A stretch of DNA of 64,000 nt from Bacteroidota bacterium. GTDB taxonomy: Bacteria; Bacteroidota; Ignavibacteria; Kryptoniales; JAKASW01. The position numbers and the translations under genes are program-made. Under the pieces are notes generated by a model. The model ran no database searches. It was not told the origin of the DNA and saw only the letters and a program-made list of their open reading frames with translations. The stretch is from assembly GCA_021845665.1 (NCBI GenBank), contig JAJZVO010000008.1, positions 12,448 to 76,447 of the forward strand, read 5' to 3'. The stretch's first letter is position 1; the number at the start of each line of letters is the position of its first letter. This document shows, one piece after another, positions 21,056-49,076 of this stretch.

Positions 21056-22525
21056 TCACAGTTTGAAGATCACCAGCTTCATTTCGGTCATTTCTTCAAT
21101 TGCGTACTTGAGCCCTTCGCGTCCCAGTCCGCTTTCCTTGACCCCACCGTACGGCATGTGGTCTACCCTGTAGCTCGGCACGTCATTTATTAACACCGCG
21201 CCCGCCTTTATCTCACGGGTAGCTTTCATCGCCTTGCTGAGATCATTTGTGTAAACACCGGCGTTTATCCCGAATCGAGACTTGTTCACAAGGCCAATGG
21301 CTTCATCGAATTTGTCGTAGACAGTGACTCCGACAAGCGGGCCGAACACTTCGTCGCTGAACACTTTCATTTCAGGTTTGACGTCGGTAAGGACCGTCGC
21401 CGCGACCACGTTGCCTTCGCGGTTACCGCCTGTGGCAACCCTGGCGCCCTGTTTCTTGGCTTCTTCGATCCATGAGATCACGCGATCGACATCTTTCTTC
21501 GTGATCAGAGCGGAAACATCGGTAGTCTCATCGAAAGGGTCTCCCACCTTGAGCTTTCCGACGGCCTCGGTGAGCTTCTGCACGAATTCCTTCGCTATAT
21601 CCTTTTGAACGAGTATCCTCTGCGTAGAGATGCATACCTGACCGGAATGTGCGAAGCCACCCTGCACGCATCTTGTCACAGCTTCGTCGAGCCTCGAAGC
21701 GTCATCCACGATGACCGCCGAATTGGAACCGAGCTCGAAAGTAAACCTTTTGAATCCCGCGACGTCCCGGATATGCTTTCCAACCTCCGGGCTTCCCGTG
21801 AAGGATACCATCACTACTCGCTGGTCCTTCACAAGCTGTTCGCCCACCGACGAGCTGCCGGTCACAACATTCAACACGCCCTTAGGCAGTCCCGCTTGCT
21901 CCATGATCTCAGCAAGCTTCAACGCGATTATGGGCGTCGACGATGCTGGTTTGAGTACGACTGTGTTGCCCGCGGCTATCGCCGGCGCGACTTTGTGCGC
22001 GACAAGGTTAAGCGGGGCGTTGAACGGCGAGATTGCCGCTATTACACCGATCGGCTCTCGCAACGTGTAGGAGACGCGGCCCGCACCTGCCGGTACCGCG
22101 TCGAGAGGGATAGTTTCGCCGTGGATTCTCTTGGCTTCCTCTGCCGCGAAAACGAACGTATCGGCAGCTCTCGCCACTTCTCCCCTCGATTCTTTTATTA
22201 CCTTGCTGTTCTCGGACGTGATCGTCCTTGCAAGATCCTCGGAATGTTGCCTGATCAGATCGGCAGTCTTGCTCAGCACGAGATATCTTTCGTAAGGAGT
22301 GCTGGCTGAAAAAGTCTCGAACGCTCTGGAGGCCGCATTCAAAGCGGAGTCTACCTGCTCCGGATTGGCAACCGGAACACGACCGACGAGCGATCCGTCG
22401 TAAGGTGATTTGACCTCGAATGAATTCCCGGAGAAGACCCATTCTCCGCCGATGTACATCCGGTAGTCTTTTCCGTCGCTCCCGGCAGATTTCAATTTGT
22501 TTATTTTTGTTTCTCCTTGTGCCAT
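21056..22525 (-). CDS. NAD(P)+ aldehyde dehydrogenase (lactaldehyde/GapN-like)
   Basis: 489 aa with ALDH motifs: VVLKPAS, FTGSPEVGKHI, ELGSNSAVIV, GQVCIS (catalytic Cys), PYGGVKESGLGREG. Confidence 0.85.
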   Translation of the reverse strand: MAQGETKINKLKSAGSDGKDYRMYIGGEWVFSGNSFEVKSPYDGSLVGRVPVANPEQVDSALNAASRAFETFSASTPYERYLVLSKTADLIRQHSEDLARTITSENSKVIKESRGEVARAADTFVFAAEEAKRIHGETIPLDAVPAGAGRVSYTLREPIGVIAAISPFNAPLNLVAHKVAPAIAAGNTVVLKPASSTPIIALKLAEIMEQAGLPKGVLNVVTGSSSVGEQLVKDQRVVMVSFTGSPEVGKHIRDVAGFKRFTFELGSNSAVIVDDASRLDEAVTRCVQGGFAHSGQVCISTQRILVQKDIAKEFVQKLTEAVGKLKVGDPFDETTDVSALITKKDVDRVISWIEEAKKQGARVATGGNREGNVVAATVLTDVKPEMKVFSDEVFGPLVGVTVYDKFDEAIGLVNKSRFGINAGVYTNDLSKAMKATREIKAGAVLINDVPSYRVDHMPYGGVKESGLGREGLKYAIEEMTEMKLVIFKL

Positions 22526-22526
22526 T

Positions 22527-23495
22527 TCATACTCCTGTATTTGGGATCGGGAAATTCACATAATTAACCGCAGCCTCACCGCGCAGGACGCGCGCAATGT
22601 CGGCAGCCACAGAATCAATCACCTTCTCCTGGGCTTCGATCGTGAGACCTGCGACGTGCGGCGTGAGTATCACATTGTTCATGCGGTTCAACTCCGTTTC
22701 TGACGGAGGTTCCTTTTCTCTCACGTCGAGTCCGGCTCCGGCAATGACATTCTCTTTCAGGGCGCGTATCAGGTCCTTTTCAAGGATGGTTTCGCCTCTC
22801 CCTGTGTTAATAATAACAGCACCGGGTTTCATTAGTTTCAGTCTGGAATAGTCGATCAACCCGATCGTGTCCTCGTTTCGTGGAAGATGGCAGGAGACAA
22901 TATCAGAGTTTGCCAGGACATCTTCGAGAGACATCAACACTGCTCCCGATTCCGTCACTGTGAAATCGAGCGGTGCAAGAAACTTGTCGTACGCTATGAC
23001 TTTCATTCCGAAGGCCTTGGCACGCATAGCGACGCGGGCACCTACCTTGCCGAAGCCGAGTATGCCGAGGGTCTTTCCGTACATTTCATGGCCGACGAAA
23101 TTGTACCTGTCCCACTCGCCACCGGCGGTCGACACATGGGAACGAGGCAGCTTGCGATACAGACCGAGCATCAATGCGAACGCATGTTCGGCCGTTGAAA
23201 TGGTGTTCTCGTTTGGAGCATAGCTTACGACGATCCCCCGCTTACTAGCGGCCTTGACGTCGATGTTATCATAACCAACGCCGGCCCGGCCTATGATCAC
23301 AAGCGACTTGGCGGCCTCTATCAGCTGGCTGTCGACTTTGGTCTGATTTCTTACGATTATGGCCTTCGCCTTCTCGATGTGACCGACCAGCTTTTCCCTT
23401 TCTTTCCAGAGATTGCCGTCACGAAGGACCTTGAATTGAGTTTCCAGACGGCCAATCGCTTCGCCGTCGATATTTTCTGTAATAAGTACGTCCAT
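22527..23495 (-). CDS. D-isomer-specific 2-hydroxyacid dehydrogenase (SerA/PGDH-like)
   Basis: 322 aa with GILGFGKVGARVA (NAD fold), NTGRGETI, LDVREKEP and TPHVAG. Its start lies 1 nt after the stop of the upstream... correction: its stop codon (22527..22529) lies 1 nt before the aldehyde dehydrogenase start (22525). Confidence 0.8.
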   Translation of the reverse strand: MDVLITENIDGEAIGRLETQFKVLRDGNLWKEREKLVGHIEKAKAIIVRNQTKVDSQLIEAAKSLVIIGRAGVGYDNIDVKAASKRGIVVSYAPNENTISTAEHAFALMLGLYRKLPRSHVSTAGGEWDRYNFVGHEMYGKTLGILGFGKVGARVAMRAKAFGMKVIAYDKFLAPLDFTVTESGAVLMSLEDVLANSDIVSCHLPRNEDTIGLIDYSRLKLMKPGAVIINTGRGETILEKDLIRALKENVIAGAGLDVREKEPPSETELNRMNNVILTPHVAGLTIEAQEKVIDSVAADIARVLRGEAAVNYVNFPIPNTGV

Positions 23496-23507
23496 CTGAA
23501 TGCCTGT

Positions 23508-24227
23508 TTAAAGTGAAATCGAATTGCGGACGAACTCTTCAAATTTCTTGTCCATGTCGGACGAGGGGAGCAGAAGCTCTCTCGTGCTGACGAGATGTTT
23601 GCGCATCGCTTCTTCAGCCTGATCCGCGTTCATGCTGAGAAGGGCCATAATGATTTGCTTATGTTCGCCTATCGTAGTTTCCATCCTCCCCGGCATATGT
23701 CCGGAGATGAATCTTATCCGGTGGATTTGCCCCATCAGGTTATTTATGATCCTGTGCGCCCGTTTGTTTCCTGCGGCGACGAGGATAAGGTTATGGAGTC
23801 TAGAGTCCGCCTCAAACGAGACTATACTGTCCTGAAGCTCGATAGCCACGTCAAGCTGTCTGCTTATGTCCTTTAGTTCCATCAGATACTGTTCGGTCAT
23901 TTTGTCTGCCGCGGAGCGGGCGGCGGCAGTCTCAATGGAAGTTCGTATCTCGAGCACCTCTTCAATGTCTTCAGGAGTAAGCTCCGAAACAAAGACGCCC
24001 CTATTGGGAATTACCCTGACAAGGTCTTCCTGCTCGAGCTTCCTCAATATTTCTCTAATAGGGGTACGGCTCATGCCGAAACTCTGGGCAAGCTCGTCCT
24101 CTCGGATCGCCTGCCCCGCTTTCAGCTTCTGGGAGATAATATCCGCCCTCAGAGTCTGAAACACCATTTCCTTCGTCTTTTTACGGGCCGGTTTCGGAAG
24201 CCCGGATTGCGTCCTGCGGGATTTCAT
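23508..24227 (-). CDS. GntR-family transcriptional regulator (FadR/FCD subfamily)
   Basis: 239 aa. Winged HTH (DELAQSFGMSRTPIREILRKLEQEDLVRVIPNRGVFV) plus an all-helical C-terminal FCD-like domain. It is the first gene of the minus-strand catabolic operon. Confidence 0.85.
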   Translation of the reverse strand: MKSRRTQSGLPKPARKKTKEMVFQTLRADIISQKLKAGQAIREDELAQSFGMSRTPIREILRKLEQEDLVRVIPNRGVFVSELTPEDIEEVLEIRTSIETAAARSAADKMTEQYLMELKDISRQLDVAIELQDSIVSFEADSRLHNLILVAAGNKRAHRIINNLMGQIHRIRFISGHMPGRMETTIGEHKQIIMALLSMNADQAEEAMRKHLVSTRELLLPSSDMDKKFEEFVRNSISL

Positions 24228-24995: not shown

Positions 24996-25286
24996 TCAAC
25001 ACGATCCGCGTTCGACGACAACCTCGCAAACAGAAGCTGGCAAGATCAAGACGCTCCCCACCCGCGCGAACGGTTCCATGAACTTCTCCACCTGCCCTTT
25101 GTCGGTCGCTTCCACGATCAGGTACAGGGTATGGGCCCCGTCTACCACCGCTTCAGAATCGATCTTCACGCCATACTTTCCTGCATTCTCACCGGAGAGG
25201 TGCATCAAAAGCATCGGTCCCATTTCCCTGTTTCTTGCGGGACAAGTCGAGTCGGTGTGCTTATGTTGGACAACATATAGTGACAT
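24996..25286 (-). CDS. Small conserved-looking protein of unknown function, last gene of the cysteine operon
   Basis: 96 aa: MSLYVVQHKHTDSTCPARN...LILPASVCEVVVERGSC. Same strand, 31 nt downstream of the E1 fusion gene. No family recognised. Confidence 0.5.
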   Translation of the reverse strand: MSLYVVQHKHTDSTCPARNREMGPMLLMHLSGENAGKYGVKIDSEAVVDGAHTLYLIVEATDKGQVEKFMEPFARVGSVLILPASVCEVVVERGSC

Positions 25287-25317
25287 CTATTTTCCCTTTC
25301 GTCGAATTCACTGAGTT

Positions 25318-26769
25318 TTAGTATCGGGGCAGAGTGGGATCTATTTTGTTAGTCCACTCATCGATTCCGCCGATAAGGTTCCTGACATACTTGAATCCCC
25401 GCTGCCTCAAATACGCTGCAGCCTTTGCACTTCGTCCTCCCATCTTGCAGTGTATCACTATCTCACGAGACGGATCGAGCTCGCCGATCCTTTTCGGCAA
25501 TTCCGATAATGGAATAAGCGGCACACCAAGATTGACGATCTCATACTCGCGCGGTTCACGGACATCGAGTATGAAGACGTTCTCTCCGTCATCGAGACGG
25601 GCTTTCAACTGCTCCACAGTGATCTCGGTTTTCTCGTCGACAGCCGGTCGGGATATGCCGGTCTTGTCTATGCCGCAAAATTGCTCGTAGTCTATCAATG
25701 CACGTATCGTCGGACTGTCGCCGCAGATCGGGCACTCCGAATTCTTTCTAAGTTTGAGTTCGCGAAACGTGAACTTGAGCGCATCGAAAAGTACGAGTCT
25801 GCCGATCAGAGGATTTCCCTCGCCGAGGAGTTGCTTGATTACCTCTAGCGCCTGCAGGCTCCCGATTATTCCGGGCAGCACCCCCAGCACTCCGCCCTCT
25901 GCGCAGCTCGGTACCAGGCCGGGAGGCGGCGGCGCAGGATACAGGCATCTGTAGCAGGGCCCCCGTCTTGCGTCGAAGACGCTTACCTGGCCGTCGAACC
26001 GCAATATGGATCCGTAGACGTTTGGCTTTCCCAGAAGGACGCACGCGTCATTCACAAGGTACCTTGTAGGGAAGTTGTCGGTGCCGTCTACAACCACATC
26101 GTAATCGGCAAACAAGTCCAGAGCATTGTCCGAGGAAAGCCTGGTTTCGTAAGTTTCTATGGATATGTTCGGGTTTATCCCTTCGAGTGTCTCGCGTGCA
26201 GAATCGAGCTTGGATCTGCCGATATCCCGAGTCGAGTGAAGAATCTGCCGCTGGAGATTTGTCTGGTCGACTACGTCGAAGTCGACGATTCCCAATTTCC
26301 CTACTCCTGCCGCTGCAAGATACATTCCAACAGGTGATCCAAGCCCGCCGGCTCCAATCATCAATACTTTCCCGGACTTGAGTTTCTTCTGCCCATCCAT
26401 ACCGACCTCGGGAATAATAAGGTGCCTGCTGTAGCGCAGCACCTCGTCGTTCGAGAGTTGGATTTCGCTCTCTACCTCCTGAATATCCGCATCCGCCCCT
26501 CCGGCTATCGACGGGATAATGCTTATCGTGTCCTTCTCACCGACGGCGGTTTTTTCCTTAGCCAGATACCTTATGTCTTCATCGTTCACATAAATATTCA
26601 CATAGCTTCTGAATGTGCCGTCCTCAGAATAGAGGTGTTGTCTTATCTGATCGAATCCTTCAGTCAGGTTAGTCAGGACCTCCCCGACTGTGGCTCCTTC
26701 GACCTCGACCACGTCTTTTTTGCCGGTAAAGGGGCGGAGGGGAGTGGGGATTAGAACTTTTATTGCCAT
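25318..26769 (-). CDS. moeZ: Fusion protein: CysO/ThiS/MoaD-like ubiquitin-like sulfur carrier + MoeZ/MoeB E1-like adenylyltransferase + rhodanese
   Basis: Start taken at the second ATG (26769), with AGGAGC 8 nt upstream. Residues 1-91 form a beta-grasp module ending IIPSIAGG (GG at 26502..26497). Then come the E1 domain (LMIGAGGLGSP, DFDVVDQTNLQRQ, CYRC...CPIC) and rhodanese (IVIHCKMGGRSAKAA). Confidence 0.85.
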   Translation of the reverse strand: MAIKVLIPTPLRPFTGKKDVVEVEGATVGEVLTNLTEGFDQIRQHLYSEDGTFRSYVNIYVNDEDIRYLAKEKTAVGEKDTISIIPSIAGGADADIQEVESEIQLSNDEVLRYSRHLIIPEVGMDGQKKLKSGKVLMIGAGGLGSPVGMYLAAAGVGKLGIVDFDVVDQTNLQRQILHSTRDIGRSKLDSARETLEGINPNISIETYETRLSSDNALDLFADYDVVVDGTDNFPTRYLVNDACVLLGKPNVYGSILRFDGQVSVFDARRGPCYRCLYPAPPPPGLVPSCAEGGVLGVLPGIIGSLQALEVIKQLLGEGNPLIGRLVLFDALKFTFRELKLRKNSECPICGDSPTIRALIDYEQFCGIDKTGISRPAVDEKTEITVEQLKARLDDGENVFILDVREPREYEIVNLGVPLIPLSELPKRIGELDPSREIVIHCKMGGRSAKAAAYLRQRGFKYVRNLIGGIDEWTNKIDPTLPRY

Positions 26770-26850
26770 TTTATTGCTCCTCATTTCTCGATCTAAAAAT
26801 TGTCGGTATCATACTACGGGCAGTCTGTCGCGATTTTCGATAAGACCAAC

Positions 26851-27318
26851 TCAAACCGGTCCGGCTCTCTTTCCAACGTCGGCTGAATCTCGCAGATTCT
26901 GCTCGACCGAGAGGTGCCTTTCCAGGAATTTATCCCTCGATTCTGAGAGCTCCCAGGCAGTCATCACTTTAGCTTCGCCTCGATCGACCGCCAGGACGAC
27001 GTAGGTGAACCAAGGGAGGGCATGCTCTCTGTCAAACTCGGAAGGTATTGCAGGATGATCGGGATGTGAGTGATAGAAACCGAGGAGTTCCAGACCCTTT
27101 TCGGTGGCGATCCTCTCAGCCCGCATATATTCTCCCGGTGTCACAAAGAACCTTCTCCTGCGGTTTTCTTCCTGGTAATTGTGGAGCTCGAACACATCGC
27201 TTACAATCCGCTTCCCGCCATCGGTCTTTCCCAAGATTATTCCGCAACATTCCTCCGGGTAGCAAGACATTCCGTGATTTTCGATTTTGTCAGCCAGCTC
27301 TTTCAGAATGATAACCAT
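26851..27318 (-). CDS. mec: JAMM/MPN+ metalloprotease (Mec+-like)
   Basis: 155 aa with EECCGIILG (catalytic Glu) and GFYHSHPDHPAIPSEFD (the H.H...S..D JAMM motif). Its ATG directly abuts the cysM stop (TGAATG). Confidence 0.85.
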   Translation of the reverse strand: MVIILKELADKIENHGMSCYPEECCGIILGKTDGGKRIVSDVFELHNYQEENRRRRFFVTPGEYMRAERIATEKGLELLGFYHSHPDHPAIPSEFDREHALPWFTYVVLAVDRGEAKVMTAWELSESRDKFLERHLSVEQNLRDSADVGKRAGPV

Positions 27319-28332
27319 TCAGCCATTCTTCGGATGTTCCGGATCGGTGTGCATCATTTCCGTGTCCCAGAACACATCGGATCCATAGCGGGAACCGCTG
27401 TCCGGAAAGACGGTCACGATGATGCCCGACCCGATTTCGAGTGCAAGTTTTAACGATGCGGCCATAGCAGCGCCGCTCGAAATGCCGACGAACAGCCCTT
27501 CTTCCCGCGACAGACGTCTAACCATCTCATAAGCTTCGTCGGTAGAGACAGCAAGCTCTTCGTCTGAGACAGACGGGTCGTAGATGCCCGGCACAATTGA
27601 AGTCCTCAGGTGCTTCAATCCTTCGAGTCCGTGCAGCGGAGAGTCGGGTTGAAATGACACACAACGAATCGCAGGATTGAACTTCTTCAGACGACGCGAT
27701 GTGCCGACGAAGGTCCCGGTTGTGCCAAGCCCCGCCACAAAGTGAGTCACCGTTCGTCCCGATTGTTCCCATATTTCCGGTGCAGTCGTCCTGTAATGCG
27801 CCATCCAATTTTCGGGGTTATTATACTGGTCGGGATAGAAATATTTGCCCGGTTCAGCGGCTATAATCTCTTTGACGAGCTGTTGGGCCCCATCGGTGCC
27901 CGTGAGCGGATCTGTTAGAATTATCTCCGCTCCGTAGGCCCGCAGGGCGGCTTTTCTTTCCTTGCTCGCATTGGCAGGGAGCGCAAGCGTAACACGATAT
28001 CCTAGCACACTTCCTATCATCGCGTAAGCTATTCCGGTATTTCCGCTCGTCGCGTCGATTATAACTTTTTCTCCGGTAAGCGCACCGGACCTCTCGGCAT
28101 CTCGGATCATGGCAATAGCCGCCCTATCTTTGACAGACCCCCCAGGGTTGAACCATTCGGCCTTCGCGTAGATCGCGGCGCTCTCGATTCCCTCGGTGAG
28201 TTTTCGAATGCGGAGAAGCGGCGTATTGCCTATCTGACCGAGTATAGAATTCCTCTCCGGTTCGCGTTGATCCGTCAGCGTCTGTTCTAAGCGAGTGCCG
28301 CCGCTTTCCACCGAGAATGGTACCTTATTCAA
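27319..28332 (-). CDS. cysM: Cysteine synthase, CysM/CysK fold (PLP-dependent)
   Basis: Carries GNTPLLRIRKL, NPGGSVKDRAA (PLP Lys), TSGNTG and GISSGAA. The start is uncertain. TTG 28332 overlaps the stop of the upstream small ORF (TTGA). GTG 28311 is also possible. ATG 28587 would add a 100-aa low-complexity extension not expected for this family. Confidence 0.8.
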   Translation of the reverse strand: MNKVPFSVESGGTRLEQTLTDQREPERNSILGQIGNTPLLRIRKLTEGIESAAIYAKAEWFNPGGSVKDRAAIAMIRDAERSGALTGEKVIIDATSGNTGIAYAMIGSVLGYRVTLALPANASKERKAALRAYGAEIILTDPLTGTDGAQQLVKEIIAAEPGKYFYPDQYNNPENWMAHYRTTAPEIWEQSGRTVTHFVAGLGTTGTFVGTSRRLKKFNPAIRCVSFQPDSPLHGLEGLKHLRTSIVPGIYDPSVSDEELAVSTDEAYEMVRRLSREEGLFVGISSGAAMAASLKLALEIGSGIIVTVFPDSGSRYGSDVFWDTEMMHTDPEHPKNG

Positions 28333-28616
28333 ACTTCTGTCTTCTGATGAGCCGTTGCCACGATTGAAATGTTCACGGCCCTTTGCCTGTCTATTGCGCG
28401 AAGTTTCTTGCATCGTTTGCAAATGCTTTTGTATTGCGGATAGAAGTCTTCCGGGCTTCTGTTTCCGCAATAGCGGCACTTGGGTGATTTCCGGTACCGG
28501 CGTTTCTGAAACGACACGTTTCCGTATCTCCGAAACCTCATATAATGTTTCCAGCAGAGTCCGCGCGCCGCGGGTTCGCCGGCACATCCATCCACGCTAC
28601 ATAAATAGCTGTTCAA
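28329..28616 (-). CDS. Possible small Cys-rich zinc-ribbon protein (frame alternative to a CysM N-terminal extension)
   Basis: Part of track ORF 28329..28706. From TTG 28616 it reads (M)NSYLCSVDGCAGEPAARGLCWKHYMRFRRYGN...CRYCGN...CKRCKK. That gives a C.4C..GLC..H motif plus two CxxC pairs. Its stop overlaps a candidate cysM start (TTGA). Alternative starts are GTG 28595 (1 nt after the cysG stop) and ATG 28706. Confidence 0.4.
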   Translation of the reverse strand: MNSYLCSVDGCAGEPAARGLCWKHYMRFRRYGNVSFQKRRYRKSPKCRYCGNRSPEDFYPQYKSICKRCKKLRAIDRQRAVNISIVATAHQKTEV

Positions 28617-30063
28617 GAAAATTATTCCTTTCTTGCCCGGGGATATTTGGAGAAGAAGATTTGCAGCGAACTGAATTGGCCGAGAGCGACATAACCGTTT
28701 CTCCAATAACGATAATTCCCGGGAGATCAGTTTCTATCCTGCCGGCTTTTTCAGAAATGTCACCGACCGTTCCCATCACCAGCTTTTCTTCGTCGGTAGT
28801 ACCACCGAATATTACCGCAGCAGGCCTGAGCCAGGGGACTCCGTTGGATATCAGTTTCTCCGAAATGGGCCCGAGGTTCTTCGTCCCCATGTAGATTACG
28901 ATTGTGTCGGCCCGCGCGGCAGAAGCCCAATCGACACACTCCCGTGCCTTAAGCGGATCTTCGTGGCCCGTTACAAAGAGAACGCTCGAAGCCTCTTTGC
29001 GATGTGTGAGAGGGATGCCTTTCGAGGTGGGTATGCCGGTGCCTGCAGTAATTCCTGGAACGACTTCGGCTTCAATACCCGCCCGCTGCAGTGCCTCCAC
29101 CTCTTCTCCACCCCGGCCGAAAACGAAAGGATCGCCGCACTTGAGTCTCACGACTATTTTTCCCTCGCGAGCTTTCCGGATAAGGATGCCGTTGATCTCT
29201 TCCTGTTTCATGCAGTGAGTTCGCGCCCTCTTGCCGACGTAGATCAGCTCAGCTGCAGAAATTACCTCGCGAAGGAGTTCTTGAGAAACCAATGCATCGT
29301 AAAGAACTACCTCCGCAGACCGGAGCATCCTTAAACCTTTCACGGTGATCAAGTCCGGATCGCCAGGTCCCGCACCGACAAGAAACACTTTTCCAGTAAC
29401 ACCCCGGTTATCCTTCAAGCTTTTCATTGAAAGATTTCTTGCGCCGATCTTCCTCTCCCGTCCATCGCTTCCCCTTTTTATCATTCTTCCAGTTCTGTGG
29501 AGCTTGCTTTTGACGTATTGTTCTTGTGCTCTCTTCCTGCTCTCGTAATCCGGAAACGTCTCCCGGATACCCGGCCGCAACCGTCCGATCTTCTCGATGG
29601 TCTCAGGGTATCCCGTGCCGAACTCATCTGCTATCCTGTCACGGATTATTTTCCCAGCGGTCGGGCTCAGGCCATTAGTCGAGACTGCGACTTTCAAATC
29701 GCCTTTAGAAAACACCGATCCGAGATAGAAAGTGCACAAATCGGGTTCGTCTGCAACGTTGACCGGAACATTAAGCGCGGAGGCTTCTGAATAGACCTGC
29801 TTTTGCACGGCAGGGTCATCGGTCGCTGCTATAACGACGGTATATCCCGCCGCATCGCCGTCAGTATATTTCCGCCGCTTCAGAGAGACTCCTGACGAAA
29901 CGGAATGCGCCTCCATCCACGGAGTGAACGAGGGTGAAATCACAGTGACATCTGCTCCGCAATCGAGAAGGCTCCTTAGTTTTTGTTCGGCGACATTTCC
30001 TCCTCCCACGACGAGGACACGCCGTCCGTTAACTTTCAGGAATATGGGATACAATCGGTTCAT
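28597..30063 (-). CDS. cysG: Siroheme synthase (precorrin-2 dehydrogenase/ferrochelatase + uroporphyrinogen-III C-methyltransferase)
   Basis: 488 aa. N-terminal Rossmann domain (RVLVVGGGNVAEQKLRSLLDCGADVTVISP). C-terminal SUMT domain (VFLVGAGPGDPDLITVKGLRMLRSAEVVLYDALV, VRLKCGDPFVFGRGGEE, GITAGTG). Confidence 0.9.
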   Translation of the reverse strand: MNRLYPIFLKVNGRRVLVVGGGNVAEQKLRSLLDCGADVTVISPSFTPWMEAHSVSSGVSLKRRKYTDGDAAGYTVVIAATDDPAVQKQVYSEASALNVPVNVADEPDLCTFYLGSVFSKGDLKVAVSTNGLSPTAGKIIRDRIADEFGTGYPETIEKIGRLRPGIRETFPDYESRKRAQEQYVKSKLHRTGRMIKRGSDGRERKIGARNLSMKSLKDNRGVTGKVFLVGAGPGDPDLITVKGLRMLRSAEVVLYDALVSQELLREVISAAELIYVGKRARTHCMKQEEINGILIRKAREGKIVVRLKCGDPFVFGRGGEEVEALQRAGIEAEVVPGITAGTGIPTSKGIPLTHRKEASSVLFVTGHEDPLKARECVDWASAARADTIVIYMGTKNLGPISEKLISNGVPWLRPAAVIFGGTTDEEKLVMGTVGDISEKAGRIETDLPGIIVIGETVMSLSANSVRCKSSSPNIPGQERNNFLEQLFM

Positions 30064-30632
30064 CCACGACTCCTCTTGGCCGCTTGTTCGGACTCTCCGG
30101 CTACCGGAAGAGCCGACAGTGCATCCTTCTCAACGGTTACAACATCAATGTCACCTGCGATAGCAAGATCGTAACCGTAAAGGAGGTATTCACGAATCAA
30201 CGGTACCAATTCCTCGTCCCGGGGGGCAATAAGTTTCAAAGGCTCAATGTCTATCCTGAATTTTTCGGTAAGATGCATCAGCGCGATGTTTTTTCCGTCC
30301 AGGTCCCTCAGGATCACTTCGGTGCGAACATTGAGGTCCTCACCTTCGTCGTCTGAGATCATCAACAACGGCCGAATCATTTGAACCGGGTTGCCGGATA
30401 GAAGCACGTTGAGGGCGTCCTCGTAATCTTCTCCTCCGGAAAAGCCATGGATCGCATCTTCGCCAGCCAGCATCAACTTAGAGATCTCGGACCAGACTGT
30501 AAGCGACAGGTTTATTGAAGGGAGTCTTTCGATCCTGTCGACAACGCCAAATTTCTGGGCCGCTTCTAACCGACGAACTGTATACGCTGACCGGAGAGGA
30601 CTTAATGATGTTGCCGGCCTCATGTTGATCAT
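30060..30632 (-). CDS. Stand-alone PUA-like protein resembling the N-terminal domain of ATP sulfurylase
   Basis: About 190 aa. Start placed at ATG 30632, which overlaps the sir stop (ATGA). Its own stop overlaps the cysG ATG (ATGA, 30063..30060). Pattern L.L......L..G.....GF....DYE......G..V....P.L.....E...L.....V.L.D.DGK.IA resembles the Sat PUA_2 domain (from memory). No catalytic HxxH/GRD region. Confidence 0.5.
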   Translation of the reverse strand: MINMRPATSLSPLRSAYTVRRLEAAQKFGVVDRIERLPSINLSLTVWSEISKLMLAGEDAIHGFSGGEDYEDALNVLLSGNPVQMIRPLLMISDDEGEDLNVRTEVILRDLDGKNIALMHLTEKFRIDIEPLKLIAPRDEELVPLIREYLLYGYDLAIAGDIDVVTVEKDALSALPVAGESEQAAKRSRG

Positions 30633-32422
30633 GCGGCACATTCCCCTTCGCCTGACGACGCGGCAAAAGCCTTATCCTCCCCGAGATCGATGAATAGTTC
30701 CCCAGTTAGTCTTTCCGGACGCAGGTCCGCCAAATCCCTGACAACATCGCGAAATGCAACTATACCGACGCGTTCATAGAATTGCCAGAAATTCTCACTT
30801 TCGATTCTGTTTGAAAGATATCTCTTGATAATTCTCGTTACGGCCTCTGGAGCATAACGTGCGGGAATTCTCCCTAGCGTTCCTCCAAATGTGTGCCTGC
30901 CGGAGTTCATTCCACCGCCGATCGAAATCAGATACGAAGGTATTTCTCCACCCGCTATCTTCTTTGTGGCACCGTGAAATCCTATTGCGGCTACATGATG
31001 CTGACCGCATGAATTCGGGCAACCGCTTATTTTTATGCGAAGCCCATCCAGAAGGGCGTTCCAGTCGGGATGCCGCTGAAGAAGTTGAGTTAGTTCCTTT
31101 CCGAGTGCACGCGAATGAGTGATGCCGAGATTGCAGGTGTCCGCACCCGGGCATGAAGTTACATTCGCTATTTCCTGAGCGCCAGCCTGGTGAAGTCCCG
31201 CCCCTTTCAATTCGTGATAGATTGACGCGATATCGGAAGACCTGATCCATCTCAGCACGATATCCTGCTGAGCGGTGGTGCGTACCATGCCGTTGGTGAA
31301 TTTATCCGCAATCCTGCCAAGCTCAAACAGCTGATCGACAGTGTAATCTCCGATAGTCGTATTCACATAGACCACGTTGTACCCGCTCTGTCTTTGAGGG
31401 AACACATTGGAATTCAACCAATGGTTAAACTCGTGATCTCCGTTCGATTGCGGAATACATGGATGATCGACCGGCAGATAGCCCTCCTCTTCCCCTATCT
31501 CCACTTCGGGGAATGTTCTTTCTGAAGCAAGTATCTTTTCTCTCTCTTGCACAACGAGCCGTTTAAACTCTTCGAAACCAAGTCTCCAAAGGACGTATTT
31601 CATCCTCGCCTTCGACCTGATCTTCCTGTTGCCGTGATCGTTGAAAACCCTGACGATAGCTTCGGTCGTTGGAATAAGCAGTCCGGCAGGGAGAAACTCT
31701 TCAAGAACGTCAGCGACACGCGGCTGAGCCCCGAGTCCCCCACCGACGAAAACTTTGAACCCGGGGACAGGTGTACCGTCGACATCTCTTACTGCTGCGA
31801 CGAATCCGATATCGTGTATCCAAGGAATTATCGCGTCGCGTTCATCGGATATCCCCGAAAAAGAAATTTTGAATTTTCGCGGGAGAGCCTGGCTCAGCTC
31901 GTTCCGCAGGAAATGTTTTGCAAGGAGATGAGAATATGGAGTCACGTCGAACGCTTCGTCAGCGGAGACTCCGGCCAAAGGAGACCCGACTATGTTGCGA
32001 ACGGTGTTTCCACACGCCTCACGCGTCGTCAGGCCGGCTTCATTCAAGCTCTCCATCAACTCCGGAACGCTTTCGAGTTTTACCCAGTGAAGCTGGATAT
32101 CCTGTCTTGTCGTGACGTGCGCGATGCCGTCAGCGAATTGTCTTGCAATACTTGCGAGCCGCCGGACCTGCAGTGAGGTCAGAAGTCCGTAAGGAACCTT
32201 TACGCGGACCATGCTGAATCCCTGCTGATCGGGTCTCTGACCATAGATGCCCAACTGGAGCCTGAACTTTTTGAACTCCTCCTCAGAAATGTCACCGATC
32301 TTGAAGCGCGCAATCGCACTCCTCATATTTTTCGCATCTTCAGCATAAGCTTCGGATGTATCTATGCCTGCACTATAAGTGTGCGCTTCGTTCAGGTCCA
32401 ACTCAATCTCCTCCTTTTGCAT
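30629..32422 (-). CDS. sir: Assimilatory sulfite reductase hemoprotein (siroheme/[4Fe-4S], ferredoxin-type NiR/SiR family)
   Basis: 597 aa. Duplicated NIR_SIR ferredoxin-like and 4Fe-4S/siroheme domains. Cluster-binding motif TSCPGADTCNLGI....GCPNSCGQHH. Confidence 0.9.
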   Translation of the reverse strand: MQKEEIELDLNEAHTYSAGIDTSEAYAEDAKNMRSAIARFKIGDISEEEFKKFRLQLGIYGQRPDQQGFSMVRVKVPYGLLTSLQVRRLASIARQFADGIAHVTTRQDIQLHWVKLESVPELMESLNEAGLTTREACGNTVRNIVGSPLAGVSADEAFDVTPYSHLLAKHFLRNELSQALPRKFKISFSGISDERDAIIPWIHDIGFVAAVRDVDGTPVPGFKVFVGGGLGAQPRVADVLEEFLPAGLLIPTTEAIVRVFNDHGNRKIRSKARMKYVLWRLGFEEFKRLVVQEREKILASERTFPEVEIGEEEGYLPVDHPCIPQSNGDHEFNHWLNSNVFPQRQSGYNVVYVNTTIGDYTVDQLFELGRIADKFTNGMVRTTAQQDIVLRWIRSSDIASIYHELKGAGLHQAGAQEIANVTSCPGADTCNLGITHSRALGKELTQLLQRHPDWNALLDGLRIKISGCPNSCGQHHVAAIGFHGATKKIAGGEIPSYLISIGGGMNSGRHTFGGTLGRIPARYAPEAVTRIIKRYLSNRIESENFWQFYERVGIVAFRDVVRDLADLRPERLTGELFIDLGEDKAFAASSGEGECAA

Positions 32423-32467: not shown

Positions 32468-32506
32468 AATGAAAAAGCCCTTCGCCGATATTCGACGAAG
32501 GGCTTT
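32468..32506 (-). terminator. Intrinsic terminator inside the 5' leader of the sir operon (attenuator terminator candidate)
   Basis: Minus strand: AAAGCCCUUCGUCG-AAUAU-CGGCGAAGGGCUUU followed by UUCAUUGUAU. Stem is 14 bp including one G-U pair. It lies about 45 nt upstream of the sir ATG and 25 nt downstream of the leader ORF stop. Confidence 0.7.
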
Positions 32507-36561: not shown

Positions 36562-37110
36562 CTACCAGGCCATCAAAGCGTATCCCATAAGCTGGTATGT
36601 CGGTACGACAGTAAGCGCGGAAAGGGCTATCGTGATGTCCCTATTTACCCAAGCGTGCTTATAACTCATGTCTGCGAGAGCCTGGCCGCAAACATAAATG
36701 ACTACGCCGTTCTTCTTGAGCTCGTTTATTAGTTTAATGTTCGGATTGTCGATACCGAATTTTGCCTTGAACGCCGAGTTGTCCAGGACAATTGGGGTCG
36801 CCGGTCCGTGAATGACGGCCACGAGCTTCATCTGGTCCGGCATCGTCCCTGCCGACGCGAATACGTTTATCAGTCTCGCGATGTGGGCGAGCGCCGGATC
36901 AACCTTGGCGTTGTTCTTCGAAGCCTGAGTCACGTCGAAGAGTATTTTGTAGTTTATGGACTTATCGGGCTGGACGGCGGCGTGAGGCAGCGGGTGAACC
37001 GGGCCGTACCCCTTTATGACGGGGTATTCCCATTTAGTCTGCGCACTCGCGAGGCTCGAAAAGCTCCCGACCAGTAACGCGACGAATAACAGTTTTGTGA
37101 TTCCTTTCAT
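36562..37110 (-). CDS. DsrE/DsrF-like family protein with Sec signal peptide (periplasmic)
   Basis: 182 aa. Signal peptide MKGITKLLFVALLVGSFSSLASAQT. The core (KILFDVTQ..., LVAVIHGPATPIVL, GVVIYVCGQALADM) resembles COG1416/DsrE-like proteins. Confidence 0.6.
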   Translation of the reverse strand: MKGITKLLFVALLVGSFSSLASAQTKWEYPVIKGYGPVHPLPHAAVQPDKSINYKILFDVTQASKNNAKVDPALAHIARLINVFASAGTMPDQMKLVAVIHGPATPIVLDNSAFKAKFGIDNPNIKLINELKKNGVVIYVCGQALADMSYKHAWVNRDITIALSALTVVPTYQLMGYALMAW

Positions 37111-37143
37111 GATGTTCCTCCTCTTATTGATTTTTTTAGTAAT

Positions 37144-37950
37144 TCATTTCTTCACGAAATGCGGTCTCGGTTGGGCGGTGACAAAAGCGGCCACATCGAG
37201 CGCCTGATCCGGTGTAAGGTTTGAGACTTGGTAAGGCATATTGTCGTGAACGAAAGCGGCGAAGTTCTGGAGATGTGCCATCCCCGCGCCATCATTGAAC
37301 GAGTGCTTTCCCCACAATGGCGGGGCAATCTTCGTTCCCTGGCCGTCCATTCCGTGACAGGCGGTGCAGGTCTGAGTGAAGATTTTCTTCCCGGCGACCG
37401 CACTCGGCTTGTGGCGACTCTCGATGTGCTTCAGACCGAGCCAGGGAATTCTTCCGTATATCGGAATTCCCTTGGATATCCAGTGGAAGTAAGTGACTAT
37501 AGCCACCATCGCCTTGCTGTCCGGCAGGAGAGCCTTGCCGTTCATGCTTCTAAGAAAGCACGCATTTGTGCGCGCGATAATGTCATCCACTTGACCGGAG
37601 CGAGATCTGTACGCGGGATACTTCGCGGCGACTCCGACGAGCGAGAGCCCGCCGTTCTTTCCGCCGGGCGAGATCCCTCCGTTGAAATGGCAGCTGGAGC
37701 ACGTGACGCTATCGCCCACATACTTGCTCGCATATTTCTGCGGATCGTTCATGATGTTGTAACCGAGCATCACGGCAGCTCTGATGCTTGCGGGCGCCTC
37801 GTTCAGCGCGGGTGGATTGTACGCCACGCCGTCCACCATCTTGGCTGCTTGCGGGCTCTTCGCGAAGACTGAGTCTCCGTAGTTGGCGGCAATAAAAGCA
37901 CAGACCAACAGTGCCAGGAGCCCCGCCGGCACGAGTAATTTCCTTTTCAT
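37144..37950 (-). CDS. tsdA: Diheme c-type cytochrome, thiosulfate dehydrogenase TsdA family
   Basis: 268 aa with a signal peptide. Two heme motifs, CSSCH and CTACH. AKYPAYRSR, NACFLRSMNG (candidate Cys axial ligand), PPLWGKHSFNDGAGM, AAFVHDNMP and ALDVAAFV match my memory of Allochromatium TsdA. Confidence 0.75.
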   Translation of the reverse strand: MKRKLLVPAGLLALLVCAFIAANYGDSVFAKSPQAAKMVDGVAYNPPALNEAPASIRAAVMLGYNIMNDPQKYASKYVGDSVTCSSCHFNGGISPGGKNGGLSLVGVAAKYPAYRSRSGQVDDIIARTNACFLRSMNGKALLPDSKAMVAIVTYFHWISKGIPIYGRIPWLGLKHIESRHKPSAVAGKKIFTQTCTACHGMDGQGTKIAPPLWGKHSFNDGAGMAHLQNFAAFVHDNMPYQVSNLTPDQALDVAAFVTAQPRPHFVKK

Positions 37951-38006
37951 TTTGTCCTTACCTCCTTGCTTGGAATTTTCTAGAAACCATTTAAGTGTCC
38001 GCGTTT

Positions 38007-38948
38007 CTACCTAAGCGGCATGAAACCGAACTTCCGATAAATCTCGGAGCTTCTCTTGGTTTTCAGGAATTTGAGAAAGTCCTTAGCGGCCTGCGGATGA
38101 GGCGCGTTTGTGAGCATCGCCGCCGAATAAGTCACGACCGTGTTTATCTTTGCAGGTATCTGGACAGCTTCGATCGGATTGCCTATCATTTTCTGGAAGA
38201 AGGCCTCCGTGTACCACACGGGACCTGCATCGGATTTCCTTTCGATGATGCGGATCGGAGTCTGCCTATGATGAATGTGGGTAAGAAAGGTGGTCCCGGC
38301 CTTGACCTTCGTGTCCATTATTTCCTTGACAAGCTTTTCACCACCGGCCTTGCGGTAAGTTGCGATGATAGTATGGGCGACCCCTTCCCATTGCGGATTC
38401 GGCATACTGACCCTCACGTCCGGCTTGCCGAGATCGTTCAATGACGAAACGTGAAGAGGATTCCCCCGATAAACCATGATGGCAAGCCGGTTCCTTGCAT
38501 AAGCTACCGACTCAGTGAAGAGGTGCTTCTCTTTTGTAAGCATGGCAATCCGAGCCTCGCCGGCCGTGAATATGTCCGGCTTGACGGATATTCTCATGTT
38601 GCCTATGACAATCGCGCCCTGCGCGATCTGGTCGAGCAAAATTCCCGGCGGGAGTGTTTCGACGAAGATGCGTTTGTACCGGGGGTATTCTTCCTGGAAG
38701 GCTTTGATCAGGTCGGGTACGACCATAAACTGATTCCCCGCGAAGAAGATGACGAGCTGTGGATCGTTTATATCGCCGTGCAAATCGGGGACATCGTCGA
38801 TACCGGGTACCGTGAATTGTTTCCCTTGTTGCGGAAATGCCGACCATGGTGGGTAGACCCTTTGCGCATTCGCCTTGTGAATGAAGGCGAACGACAGAAG
38901 GGTAAGTGCGAGAAACGTCGTGACGCTCAGTTTGAATCTGGATTTCAT
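38007..38948 (-). CDS. Periplasmic type-2 substrate-binding protein (ModA/sulfate-binding-like), orphan
   Basis: 313 aa with a signal peptide. Carries FFAGNQFMVVPDLIKAFQEEYP and a C-terminal AAKDFLKFLKTKRSSEIYRKFGF typical of ModA-like binding proteins. No ABC permease or ATPase gene nearby. Confidence 0.6.
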   Translation of the reverse strand: MKSRFKLSVTTFLALTLLSFAFIHKANAQRVYPPWSAFPQQGKQFTVPGIDDVPDLHGDINDPQLVIFFAGNQFMVVPDLIKAFQEEYPRYKRIFVETLPPGILLDQIAQGAIVIGNMRISVKPDIFTAGEARIAMLTKEKHLFTESVAYARNRLAIMVYRGNPLHVSSLNDLGKPDVRVSMPNPQWEGVAHTIIATYRKAGGEKLVKEIMDTKVKAGTTFLTHIHHRQTPIRIIERKSDAGPVWYTEAFFQKMIGNPIEAVQIPAKINTVVTYSAAMLTNAPHPQAAKDFLKFLKTKRSSEIYRKFGFMPLR

Positions 38949-48993: not shown

Positions 48994-49076
48994 GGAGGGT
49001 TGGCAGAATGGCTAATGCACCGGTCTTGAAAACCGGCGCCCTCACGGGCTTGGGGGTTCGAGTCCCTCACCCTCCG
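48994..49076 (+). tRNA. tRNA-Ser (anticodon UGA)
   Basis: Cloverleaf folded by hand. Acceptor stem GGAGGGU/ACCCUCC. Anticodon arm CCGGU-CUUGAAA-ACCGG (anticodon TGA). Long variable arm GCCC-UCAC-GGGC. T arm GGGGG-UUCGAGU-CCCUC. Discriminator G. CCA is not encoded. Confidence 0.9.

Follow-up and report, generated by a model that had tools for sequence, protein, structure and literature searches.

Mycobacterium tuberculosis reportedly makes cysteine by a protein-thiocarboxylate pathway, said to have been described by Burns et al. in 2005, whose proteins are CysO, MoeZ(R), CysM and Mec+. The same four protein types are encoded on the minus strand of the DNA analysed here, a stretch of 64,000 nucleotides of contig JAJZVO010000008.1 from a Bacteroidota bacterium (hereafter the window): a sulfur carrier, an activating (E1) enzyme bearing a rhodanese domain like MoeZ, and, adjacent to them, a JAMM (MPN+) metalloprotease and a CysM-fold enzyme dependent on pyridoxal phosphate (PLP). 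In the window, however, the carrier stands in one chain with its E1, so that a maturation cut is needed, whereas tuberculosis CysO ends at Gly-Gly (GG) and moeZ is a separate gene. The window also differs in its CysM, which is nearer to E. coli CysM, in an operon that embeds a sulfite reductase and a siroheme synthase, and in its Kryptoniota- or Bacteroidota-like host. We propose that the fused gene, cysO~moeZ, encodes a polyprotein precursor that is cut after GG by the adjacent JAMM protease, within a protein-thiocarboxylate cysteine pathway, and we give this reading a probability of roughly 0.7.

The gene set itself has been described. Operon type 4c of Iyer, Burroughs & Aravind (2006) consists of ThiS/MoaD, E1-rhodanese, JAB and cysteine synthase genes, and that survey lists Pseudomonas aeruginosa, Rhodopseudomonas palustris, Solibacter usitatus, Rubrobacter, Salinibacter ruber and Chloroflexus as hosts (PMC1779556). 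All four genes are found co-linear on one strand of the window, at 25318..28332, with a JAMM protein whose nearest solved relative is the MPN protein 2kcq. An earlier note on this DNA, made from the sequence alone, had pointed out that the system lies outside Actinobacteria; this is true but not new, since the same operon figures in the survey. The excerpted text of that survey mentions no carrier-E1 fusion for this operon type, its table giving E1 fused to rhodanese only (PMC1779556).

Release of fused carriers is known from a sister pathway. In M. tuberculosis MoaX, a cut between Gly82 and Ser83 is required for function (PMC4326299); the D. radiodurans JAMM protease DR0402 cleaves the natural MoaD-MoaE fusion DR2607 (PMC8832034), and H. 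volcanii HvJAMM1 acts on SAMP1-MoaE (PMC4443979). As in the window, a beta-grasp carrier is joined via GG to a pathway partner and cleavage is required, in Deinococcus and Haloferax by a JAMM/MPN+ protease. The partner there, however, is the downstream sulfur acceptor MoaE, in molybdopterin synthesis, whereas in the window it is the upstream activating E1, in cysteine synthesis. Trimming of post-GG tails by a JAMM protease is described for QbsE/QbsD and proposed for CxnE/CxnF (PMC5925218). These too are carrier precursors whose GG is exposed by a JAMM protease of the same cluster, and relatives of the window gene in which carrier and E1 are split have such tails; but the QbsE and CxnE tails are functionless stretches of 1-10 residues, while the 'tail' in the window is a two-domain enzyme of 392 residues. 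HcyS/HcyD is another short-tail carrier and JAMM pair.

A similar layout is that of eukaryotic ubiquitin precursors (polyubiquitin and ubiquitin-ribosomal protein fusions), in which a GG ubiquitin-fold domain precedes another polypeptide in the chain and is set free by an enzyme of the deubiquitinase type. Cysteine proteases do most of this processing in eukaryotes, Urm1 has no tail when made, and to our knowledge ubiquitin is never fused to its own E1. The combination of E1 and rhodanese is shared with Uba4/MOCS3. The operon type and the JAMM-dependent release of fused carriers are thus already known, and databases already contain the fusion, misleadingly named; what is new is the E1 as proposed leaving group in primary cysteine synthesis, together with the comparative evidence that post-GG tails are the norm in this clade. 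Our literature searches found no experiments on a carrier joined to its own E1, on a CysO-E1 fusion in particular, or on precursor processing in a cysteine pathway.

The fusion gene (Table 1) is open throughout, without internal stop, and a GAGGAG ribosome-binding site lies 7 nt upstream of its ATG at 26769. A longer start, ATG 26784, is less likely, the ribosome-binding site and the N-termini of homologues both favouring ATG 26769. In the protein of 483 residues, Pfam recognises ThiS (PF02597, E=2.7e-12), ThiF (PF00899, E=4.8e-85) and Rhodanese (PF00581, E=1.3e-16). The N-terminal module, put at about 91 residues in the earlier note, belongs to the ThiS/MoaD family (47.5 bits for PF02597 against a cut-off of 22.5), and its best match among all PDB sequences is M. 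tuberculosis CysO itself (3dwg_C, E=6.3e-17), aligned end to end with residues 2-91, both proteins finishing in AGG. The analogy with the CysO, MoeZ, CysM and Mec proteins that the note had drawn stands. The next match is an Amycolatopsis ThiS/MoaD family protein (4n6e_B, 1.6e-15), and a further one is the Thermus MoaD-related protein 1v8c, where GG precedes another domain. The motifs IPTxLR and VNIYVNDEDIR are common to the carrier domain and CysO, and more than 25 positions of the domain, including the whole C-terminal tail, are invariant across homologues of 65-100% identity. On these comparisons we take the module to be a CysO orthologue.

The last 380 residues match the NCBIfam models for MoeB (NF005646, 1.4e-157) and MoeZ (NF005902, 1e-149), in both cases under the cut-off (524.8 versus 633 and 498.7 versus 647, respectively); a second MoeB model, NF006444 (PRK08762), is passed with 470.2 versus 449. 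The E1 motifs GAGGLGSP, CYRC and CPIC and the rhodanese motif HCKMGGRS, with Cys441, are all present, as the earlier note had read them behind the acidic linker. Among 32 aligned homologues the loop G139-S145 is invariant apart from A140, which at least 90% of the sequences share; also invariant are C272, C275, C346 and C349 of the zinc site and C441, G444, R446 and S447 of the rhodanese domain. By its motifs, the E1-rhodanese part is predicted to be catalytically complete. In an AlphaFold2 (AF2) model the three domains are folded, with a mean predicted local distance difference test score (pLDDT) of 73 and a predicted template modelling score (pTM) of 0.55. Foldseek aligns the modelled E1 part with MoeB (1jw9) and ThiF (1zud) at target-normalised TM-scores of 0.87-0.89, and the best fold match over E1 and rhodanese together is Uba4 (6yub).

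The junction between carrier and E1 has an uneven pattern of conservation. The Gly90-Gly91 codons, rightly described as having no stop behind them, are followed by GCG GAT GCG..., the first of which encodes Ala92; Ala92 and all that follows place 392 residues behind GG, and the unprocessed chain has no free carboxylate at the carrier terminus. The carrier tail reads S-I-[IV]-P-S-I-A-G-G in the 32 homologues, I84 and P86-S87-I88-A89-G90-G91 being invariant and position 85 either I or V. Nothing is conserved from there to Leu105, the next invariant position, which stands at the head of an E1 helix (LSNEEILRYSRHLI). In 177 fused proteins, GG and the RYSRH motif lie between 11 and 45 residues apart (median 20), Glu, Val, Ala and Asp abound in the linker, and the position behind GG is filled by V, S, A, I, T, K, N or others. 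Such variation at this position would be expected of a JAMM enzyme that recognises the body of the carrier and accepts any leaving group. In the AF2 model, pLDDT drops below 50 over residues 86-120, which take in the GG tail and the linker, and the linker is modelled as disordered. A recognition element that never varies, with a disordered stretch free of constraint behind it, is what marks a processing site.

E1 enzymes such as MoeB, ThiF and Uba4 adenylate a free C-terminal carboxylate. Because a peptide-bound Gly cannot be adenylated, formation of the thiocarboxylate in cis on a tethered carrier is untenable, and the second of the two options left by the earlier note, a carrier acting in cis while still attached, falls away; in the AF2 model, consulted on whether the tail might reach the E1 site in cis, tail and linker are in the low-confidence segment just mentioned. 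An intein-like acyl shift, or any self-cleavage that depends on Ser, Thr or Cys, is excluded as well because the residue following GG is Ala. The reaction of a Mec+-type JAMM protease is hydrolysis of the alpha-peptide bond between the last Gly of the carrier and cysteine. Since maturation of the precursor and release of cysteine are the same hydrolysis of an alpha-peptide bond after GG, the fusion would need no new activity.

From the domain identities, the intact motifs, the operon structure and the comparative pattern we infer a route in which cleavage, protease, thiocarboxylate formation and substrate choice would be as follows. CysO, linker and MoeZ would be translated as a single chain, in which the JAMM/MPN+ protease encoded upstream would hydrolyse the Gly91-Ala92 bond, giving a 91-residue carrier with a -Gly-Gly-COOH end and the E1-rhodanese enzyme in 1:1 amounts. 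The E1 would adenylate the terminal Gly of the carrier, and a persulfide on Cys441, or sulfide from the sulfite reductase, would convert it to CysO-COSH. The CysM-type enzyme would then join the thiocarboxylate to an aminoacrylate derived from O-phosphoserine or O-acetylserine, and an acyl shift would yield CysO-Gly-Gly-Cys. A second cut after GG by the same JAMM protease would let cysteine out and recycle the carrier.

The fusion is real, and it is common rather than rare, as a survey suggested in the earlier note now makes plain. In a search of 5.8 billion proteins, at least 120 clusters (NCBI, JGI, ENA, Logan) have the ThiS+ThiF+Rhodanese architecture at 65-100% identity; the named ones come from Ignavibacteria, Kryptoniota and Bacteroidota metagenome-assembled genomes (MAGs), under the pipeline name 'MoeB'. 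The homologue in locus L081 (L numbers are our locus handles), 85% identical, is fused on 20 independently assembled contigs, its operon being fully syntenic with that of the window. A scan of one genome per species returned at least 598 relatives, of which the best 80 loci, ranked by tblastn E-value, were examined; they are mostly from Acidobacteriota, with others from Gemmatimonadota, Kryptoniota, Bacteroidota, Armatimonadota, Eisenbacteria and Chloroflexia. Carrier and E1 are fused in 59 of the 80 and split in about 21, a ratio biased toward the fused form, to which we attach no interpretation, because E-value ranking favours fused loci and split loci that stay in frame. The gene order CysM-JAMM-CysO-E1/rhodanese is nearly universal in the 80 loci, across several phyla. 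Of the 54 fused loci whose flank is long enough, 53 have the JAMM gene immediately upstream of the fusion and 51 have a CysM gene upstream. In roughly one in four related loci, a stop follows GG within a short distance, which would fit a stop lost, or a frame shifted, by a sequencing or assembly error in the window. The chance of this is practically nil: the architecture recurs in the clusters of all four sources, in the 59 species-representative genomes and on the 20 contigs of independent assemblies, and the linker is in frame with conserved domains on both sides, so that an artefact, the refutation envisaged in the earlier note, is itself refuted by this recurrence.

Two further arrangements were seen among these loci. 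In L026 (168..1460, an Acidobacteria MAG), CysM-like and JAMM-like matches fall in one open reading frame (ORF) of about 430 residues beside a CysO~E1 fusion; this may be a CysM-JAMM fusion, which would bring the module down to two polypeptides, or it may be a sequencing error. In L072 and L033 the fused CysO~E1, with CysM and JAMM genes next to it, is found on contigs that were binned as archaea (Nitrososphaerales and Thermoplasmata), through either horizontal transfer or mis-binning.

In the split loci cysO and moeZ are separate and consecutive, with cysO at the exact position of the fused domain, and the stand-alone carriers almost always extend 1-30 residues past GG. They end, for instance, in GG-MY, GG-NGDR, GG-AGNKRAR, GG-CCPCGCCCCPR, GG-R or GG-V, or in longer tails of up to about 30 residues, and a stop exactly after GG occurs in L076 only. 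A search with just the carrier domain in 1.84 billion representative proteins, many of them metagenomic fragments, gave 119 matches with a recognisable GG motif, of which 3 stop at GG, 19 go on for 1-3 residues, 76 bear longer tails and 21 continue into E1. Because nearly all split carriers have residues behind GG, trimming after GG appears to be the rule of the clade; judging from these sequences, the carrier would normally be made as a precursor, of which the E1 fusion would be the most extreme post-GG tail. Fitch parsimony on a neighbour-joining tree of the E1-rhodanese part, which is approximate, gives at least nine switches between the fused and split states. The two states are therefore readily interchangeable, which argues that they are functionally equivalent. 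Any tail and repeated fusions would be tolerated because removing a tail, or the E1, is the Mec+ reaction with another leaving group. The comparative data thus strongly favour the first option of the earlier note, a cut at GG by the neighbouring JAMM protease.

In 17 of the 21 split loci (L004, L005, L009, L011-L014, L016, L017, L034, L035, L037, L058, L060, L061, L063 and L076), moeZ lies in the frame of cysO, even across spacers with several stops. Stop-codon readthrough or very recent fission was considered as the cause and set aside, given that the spacers often contain several stops and that the ranking is biased: in-frame loci give one long match with E=0, and out-of-frame loci are found at the bottom of the list (L070-L079, E ~1e-175). 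The excess is most likely an ascertainment effect of the tblastn ranking.

Stand-alone CysO homologues from Acidobacteria often have Cys-rich post-GG tails, such as GG-CCPCGCCCCPR, GG-CCCCCCL, GG-CCPPAACCCR and GG-ACACYCPCRMNA. Examples stem from L012 (5280..5582), L013 (7788..8348) and L061 (2201..2488) and from the proteins P0147, P0163, P0182, P0199 and P0216. A Cys directly after GG mimics the CysO-Cys adduct, the normal substrate of the JAMM protease.

The earlier note was correct in placing the JAMM and CysM genes directly upstream of the fusion. The JAMM protein (84.7 bits for the Prok-JAB family PF14464 against a cut-off of 25) has the complete motif E22 ... H83-S-H85-x7-S93-x2-D96. 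Its best PDB match is 2kcq (2.7e-30), which we take to be a Salinibacter protein, and PfJAMM1 (5lda) also matches; Mec+ was not among its solved-structure matches. The CysM protein belongs to the PLP fold type II CysK/CysM family by its PALP match (PF00291, E=6e-74) and comes near the TIGR01138 cysM equivalog (E=4e-111) without being a member, with 371.2 bits against a cut-off of 394.2. Its start at TTG 28332, implied in the earlier note, is backed by a gene call of 339 residues in L081. A CysM ORF of 422 residues from ATG 28587 was rejected, for the longer frame has stops in L081, where a different small ORF is kept. The closest solved relatives are E. coli CysM (2v03, 6.6e-73) and Salmonella CysM (about 7e-73). 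The residue aligned with position 210 of E. coli CysM, presumably a functionally important Arg in that enzyme, is Lys.

Several points weigh against cleavage by the neighbouring JAMM protease in a cysteine pathway of this kind, and some of them favour other explanations. With a pTM of 0.55, the inter-domain arrangement of the AF2 model is unreliable, and access of the JAMM protease to the junction in the folded precursor cannot be read from it. We found no published biochemistry on the fusion or any orthologue. One fused locus, L057, has no JAMM gene within 8 kb, and for M. tuberculosis MoaX no protease has been assigned (PMC4326299), so that proteases other than a neighbour are possible. The last two points would suit a cut after GG made by another protease, or autocatalytically, with the JAMM protease hydrolysing only CysO-Cys. 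We hold this to be unlikely, in view of the JAMM gene's place directly upstream in all but one of the fused loci with enough flank, of the chemical identity between the hydrolysis needed and the known Mec+ reaction, of the JAMM enzymes that cleave linear MoaD-MoaE and SAMP fusions and post-GG tails, and of the Ala after GG, which excludes Ser/Thr/Cys-dependent self-cleavage.

The search for a second carrier bears on another explanation. In none of the 59 fused loci was a second CysO-like ORF found at a distance of up to 8 kb from the fusion, nor, in the 64-kb window, a ThiS-like ORF ending in GG plus 0-6 residues; the search covered the window and these 8-kb flanks, a limit that is a further point against our proposal. 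A separate carrier encoded elsewhere could then move the sulfur, the fused beta-grasp domain being a permanent docking or regulatory module that is never released, and the JAMM protease only freeing cysteine. There are precedents for a beta-grasp domain N-terminal to E1: in Campylobacter, a ubiquitin-like (Ubl) domain fused to ThiF is distinct from ThiS and co-occurs with a separate ThiS, and the survey infers a different role for such a fused domain (Iyer et al. 2006, PMC1779556); in Thaumarchaeota there is a Ubl-E1-TBP fusion (Makarova & Koonin 2010, PMC2948915). The Campylobacter type, however, is without rhodanese and outside a JAMM and CysM context, and its domain is described as distinct from ThiS, whereas that of the window is a full-length CysO orthologue by its match to 3dwg_C and occupies the position that a separate cysO holds in split relatives. 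An invariant GG followed by an unconstrained linker would, moreover, be unexpected for a fixed structural domain. With no second carrier gene in the 59 fused loci or the window either, a domain that is never released seems to us quite unlikely.

The remaining points against the proposal concern CysM. Besides having E. coli and Salmonella CysM as its nearest solved relatives, the window protein does not have M. tuberculosis CysM among its 60 best PDB matches (all at or below 7.6e-52); it is the gene linkage that points to use of a protein thiocarboxylate. E. coli CysM uses sulfide or thiosulfate with O-acetylserine. The carrier could accordingly be vestigial, with CysM acting on free sulfide or thiosulfate, the E1-rhodanese serving molybdopterin synthesis or tRNA thiolation, and shared sulfur regulation accounting for the linkage; NCBI pipelines do label the fusion 'MoeB', and M. 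tuberculosis MoeZR also serves biosynthesis of the molybdenum cofactor (PMC3227635). We regard this as highly improbable: strong purifying selection acts on the carrier domain, as its invariant positions and tail show, the four-gene module CysM-JAMM-CysO-E1 is kept across several phyla, and a JAMM protease has no role in a free-sulfide pathway.

Within the proposal of a cut by the neighbouring JAMM protease, we also consider, as a tentative idea of low probability, a zymogen-like licensing in which the tethered carrier sits in, or obstructs, the Ubl-binding site on its own E1 or on the partner protomer, so that carrier and E1 would both be inactive until the cut. If so, a single metalloprotease would switch the pathway on, from a pre-assembled 1:1 complex of carrier and E1, and would turn it over through cysteine release. 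Ubiquitin-precursor processing would then have a counterpart in prokaryotes, with E1 as the leaving group, and JAMM activity, set by metal or redox state, would be the control point of a sulfide-protected cysteine synthesis.

Should cleavage by the neighbouring JAMM protease be correct, the principle would extend from short tails and MoaD-MoaE to a carrier fused with its own activating enzyme, and from molybdopterin and siderophore pathways to primary cysteine synthesis. Hundreds of species have the architecture, in the abundant soil phyla Acidobacteriota and Gemmatimonadota as well as in Kryptoniota- and Bacteroidota-like lineages, so that a large share of environmental bacteria may make cysteine via a protein-bound thiocarboxylate with parts annotated only as 'MoeB'. 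Tails of any length, together with repeated fusion and fission, offer a simple model of how ubiquitin-style precursor processing could arise without a new enzyme activity. For annotation, such genes should be labelled carrier-E1 fusions, and carrier genes of this clade should not be expected to end at GG.

Table 1. Genes of the sulfur operon and parts of the fusion gene, in window coordinates
Feature	Coordinates	Strand	Evidence
NirA/Sir-type siroheme sulfite reductase, first operon gene	30629..32422	-	NIR_SIR 3.6e-53; NIR_SIR_ferr 2.1e-37
Stand-alone PUA_2-like protein, resembles ATP-sulfurylase N-terminal domain	30060..30641	-	PF14306 2.9e-7
Siroheme synthase CysG	28597..30063	-	NF007922 1e-133; 446.7 bits versus cut-off 400
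Small Cys-rich ORF, about 88 aa, start uncertain, between cysG and cysM	28329..28595	-	In-frame conservation in L081
CysM-type PLP-dependent cysteine synthase, about 337 aa from TTG 28332	27319..28332	-	PF00291 6e-74; TIGR01138 4e-111
JAMM/MPN+ metalloprotease (Mec+/QbsD-like), 155 aa	26851..27318	-	PF14464 5.6e-24
cysO~moeZ fusion gene, 483 aa (carrier, linker, E1, rhodanese)	25318..26769	-	Pfam ThiS+ThiF+Rhodanese
CysO-like beta-grasp carrier domain, residues 1-91, end ...IIPSIAGG	26497..26769	-	Best PDB match 3dwg_C 6.3e-17
Gly90-Gly91 codons; predicted scissile bond Gly91-Ala92	26497..26502	-	Direct sequence reading; GG invariant
Acidic linker ADADIQEVESEIQ, residues 92-104	26458..26496	-	No invariant column G91 to L105
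MoeB/ThiF/MoeZ-type E1 adenylation domain, GAGGLGS ATP loop, Zn site CYRC/CPIC	25660..26457	-	PF00899 4.8e-85
Rhodanese domain, catalytic Cys441 (HCKMGGRS)	25348..25620	-	PF00581 1.3e-16
96-aa ORF, 31 nt downstream of fusion, possible last operon gene	24996..25286	-	DUF3303 5e-4, weak, below cut-off

The minus-strand genes at 24996..32422 form a tight run, with the sulfite reductase first and the fusion near the 3' end (Table 1). As sulfite reductase and siroheme synthase are encoded in this operon too, reduced sulfur may be passed to the carrier system rather than freed as sulfide. The CysM stop and the JAMM start meet without overlap in TGAATG (27321..27316), a junction already picked out in the earlier note, and the PUA_2-like ORF (193 aa), which is kept in L081, overlaps both the sulfite reductase and the cysG genes. 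The 96-aa ORF is present in L081 (8484..8774) and absent from the 80 more distant loci. Promoter and terminator scans gave no enrichment over shuffled sequences, the sole notable site being a strong 15-bp terminator-like hairpin at 32506..32474, just upstream of the sulfite reductase gene; an Rfam scan found no riboswitch or other RNA element in the operon, its only match being a tRNA at 48994..49076.

The small Cys-rich ORF between cysG and cysM (MDGCAGEPAARGLCWKHYMRFRRYG...CRYCGN...CKRC) is without a Pfam match and weakly resembles the N-terminal zinc-finger part of phage HNH endonuclease families (phrog_5351, 1.3e-5), without the nuclease domain; its product may be a small DNA-binding protein or regulator belonging to the operon.

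A few kb upstream, at 36562..38948 (-) and separated from the operon by a large GH38-family gene, lie genes for a DsrE-like protein, a SoxA/TsdA-type dihaem cytochrome c and an SBP_bac_11 solute-binding protein of the sulfate/thiosulfate/molybdate type, which hint at thiosulfate handling nearby. Downstream, at 21056..24227 (-), genes for a GntR/FCD regulator, a SerA-like D-2-hydroxyacid dehydrogenase and an aldehyde dehydrogenase are all three syntenic in L081; if the SerA-like enzyme were a phosphoglycerate dehydrogenase, it would, speculatively, feed the supply of O-phosphoserine.

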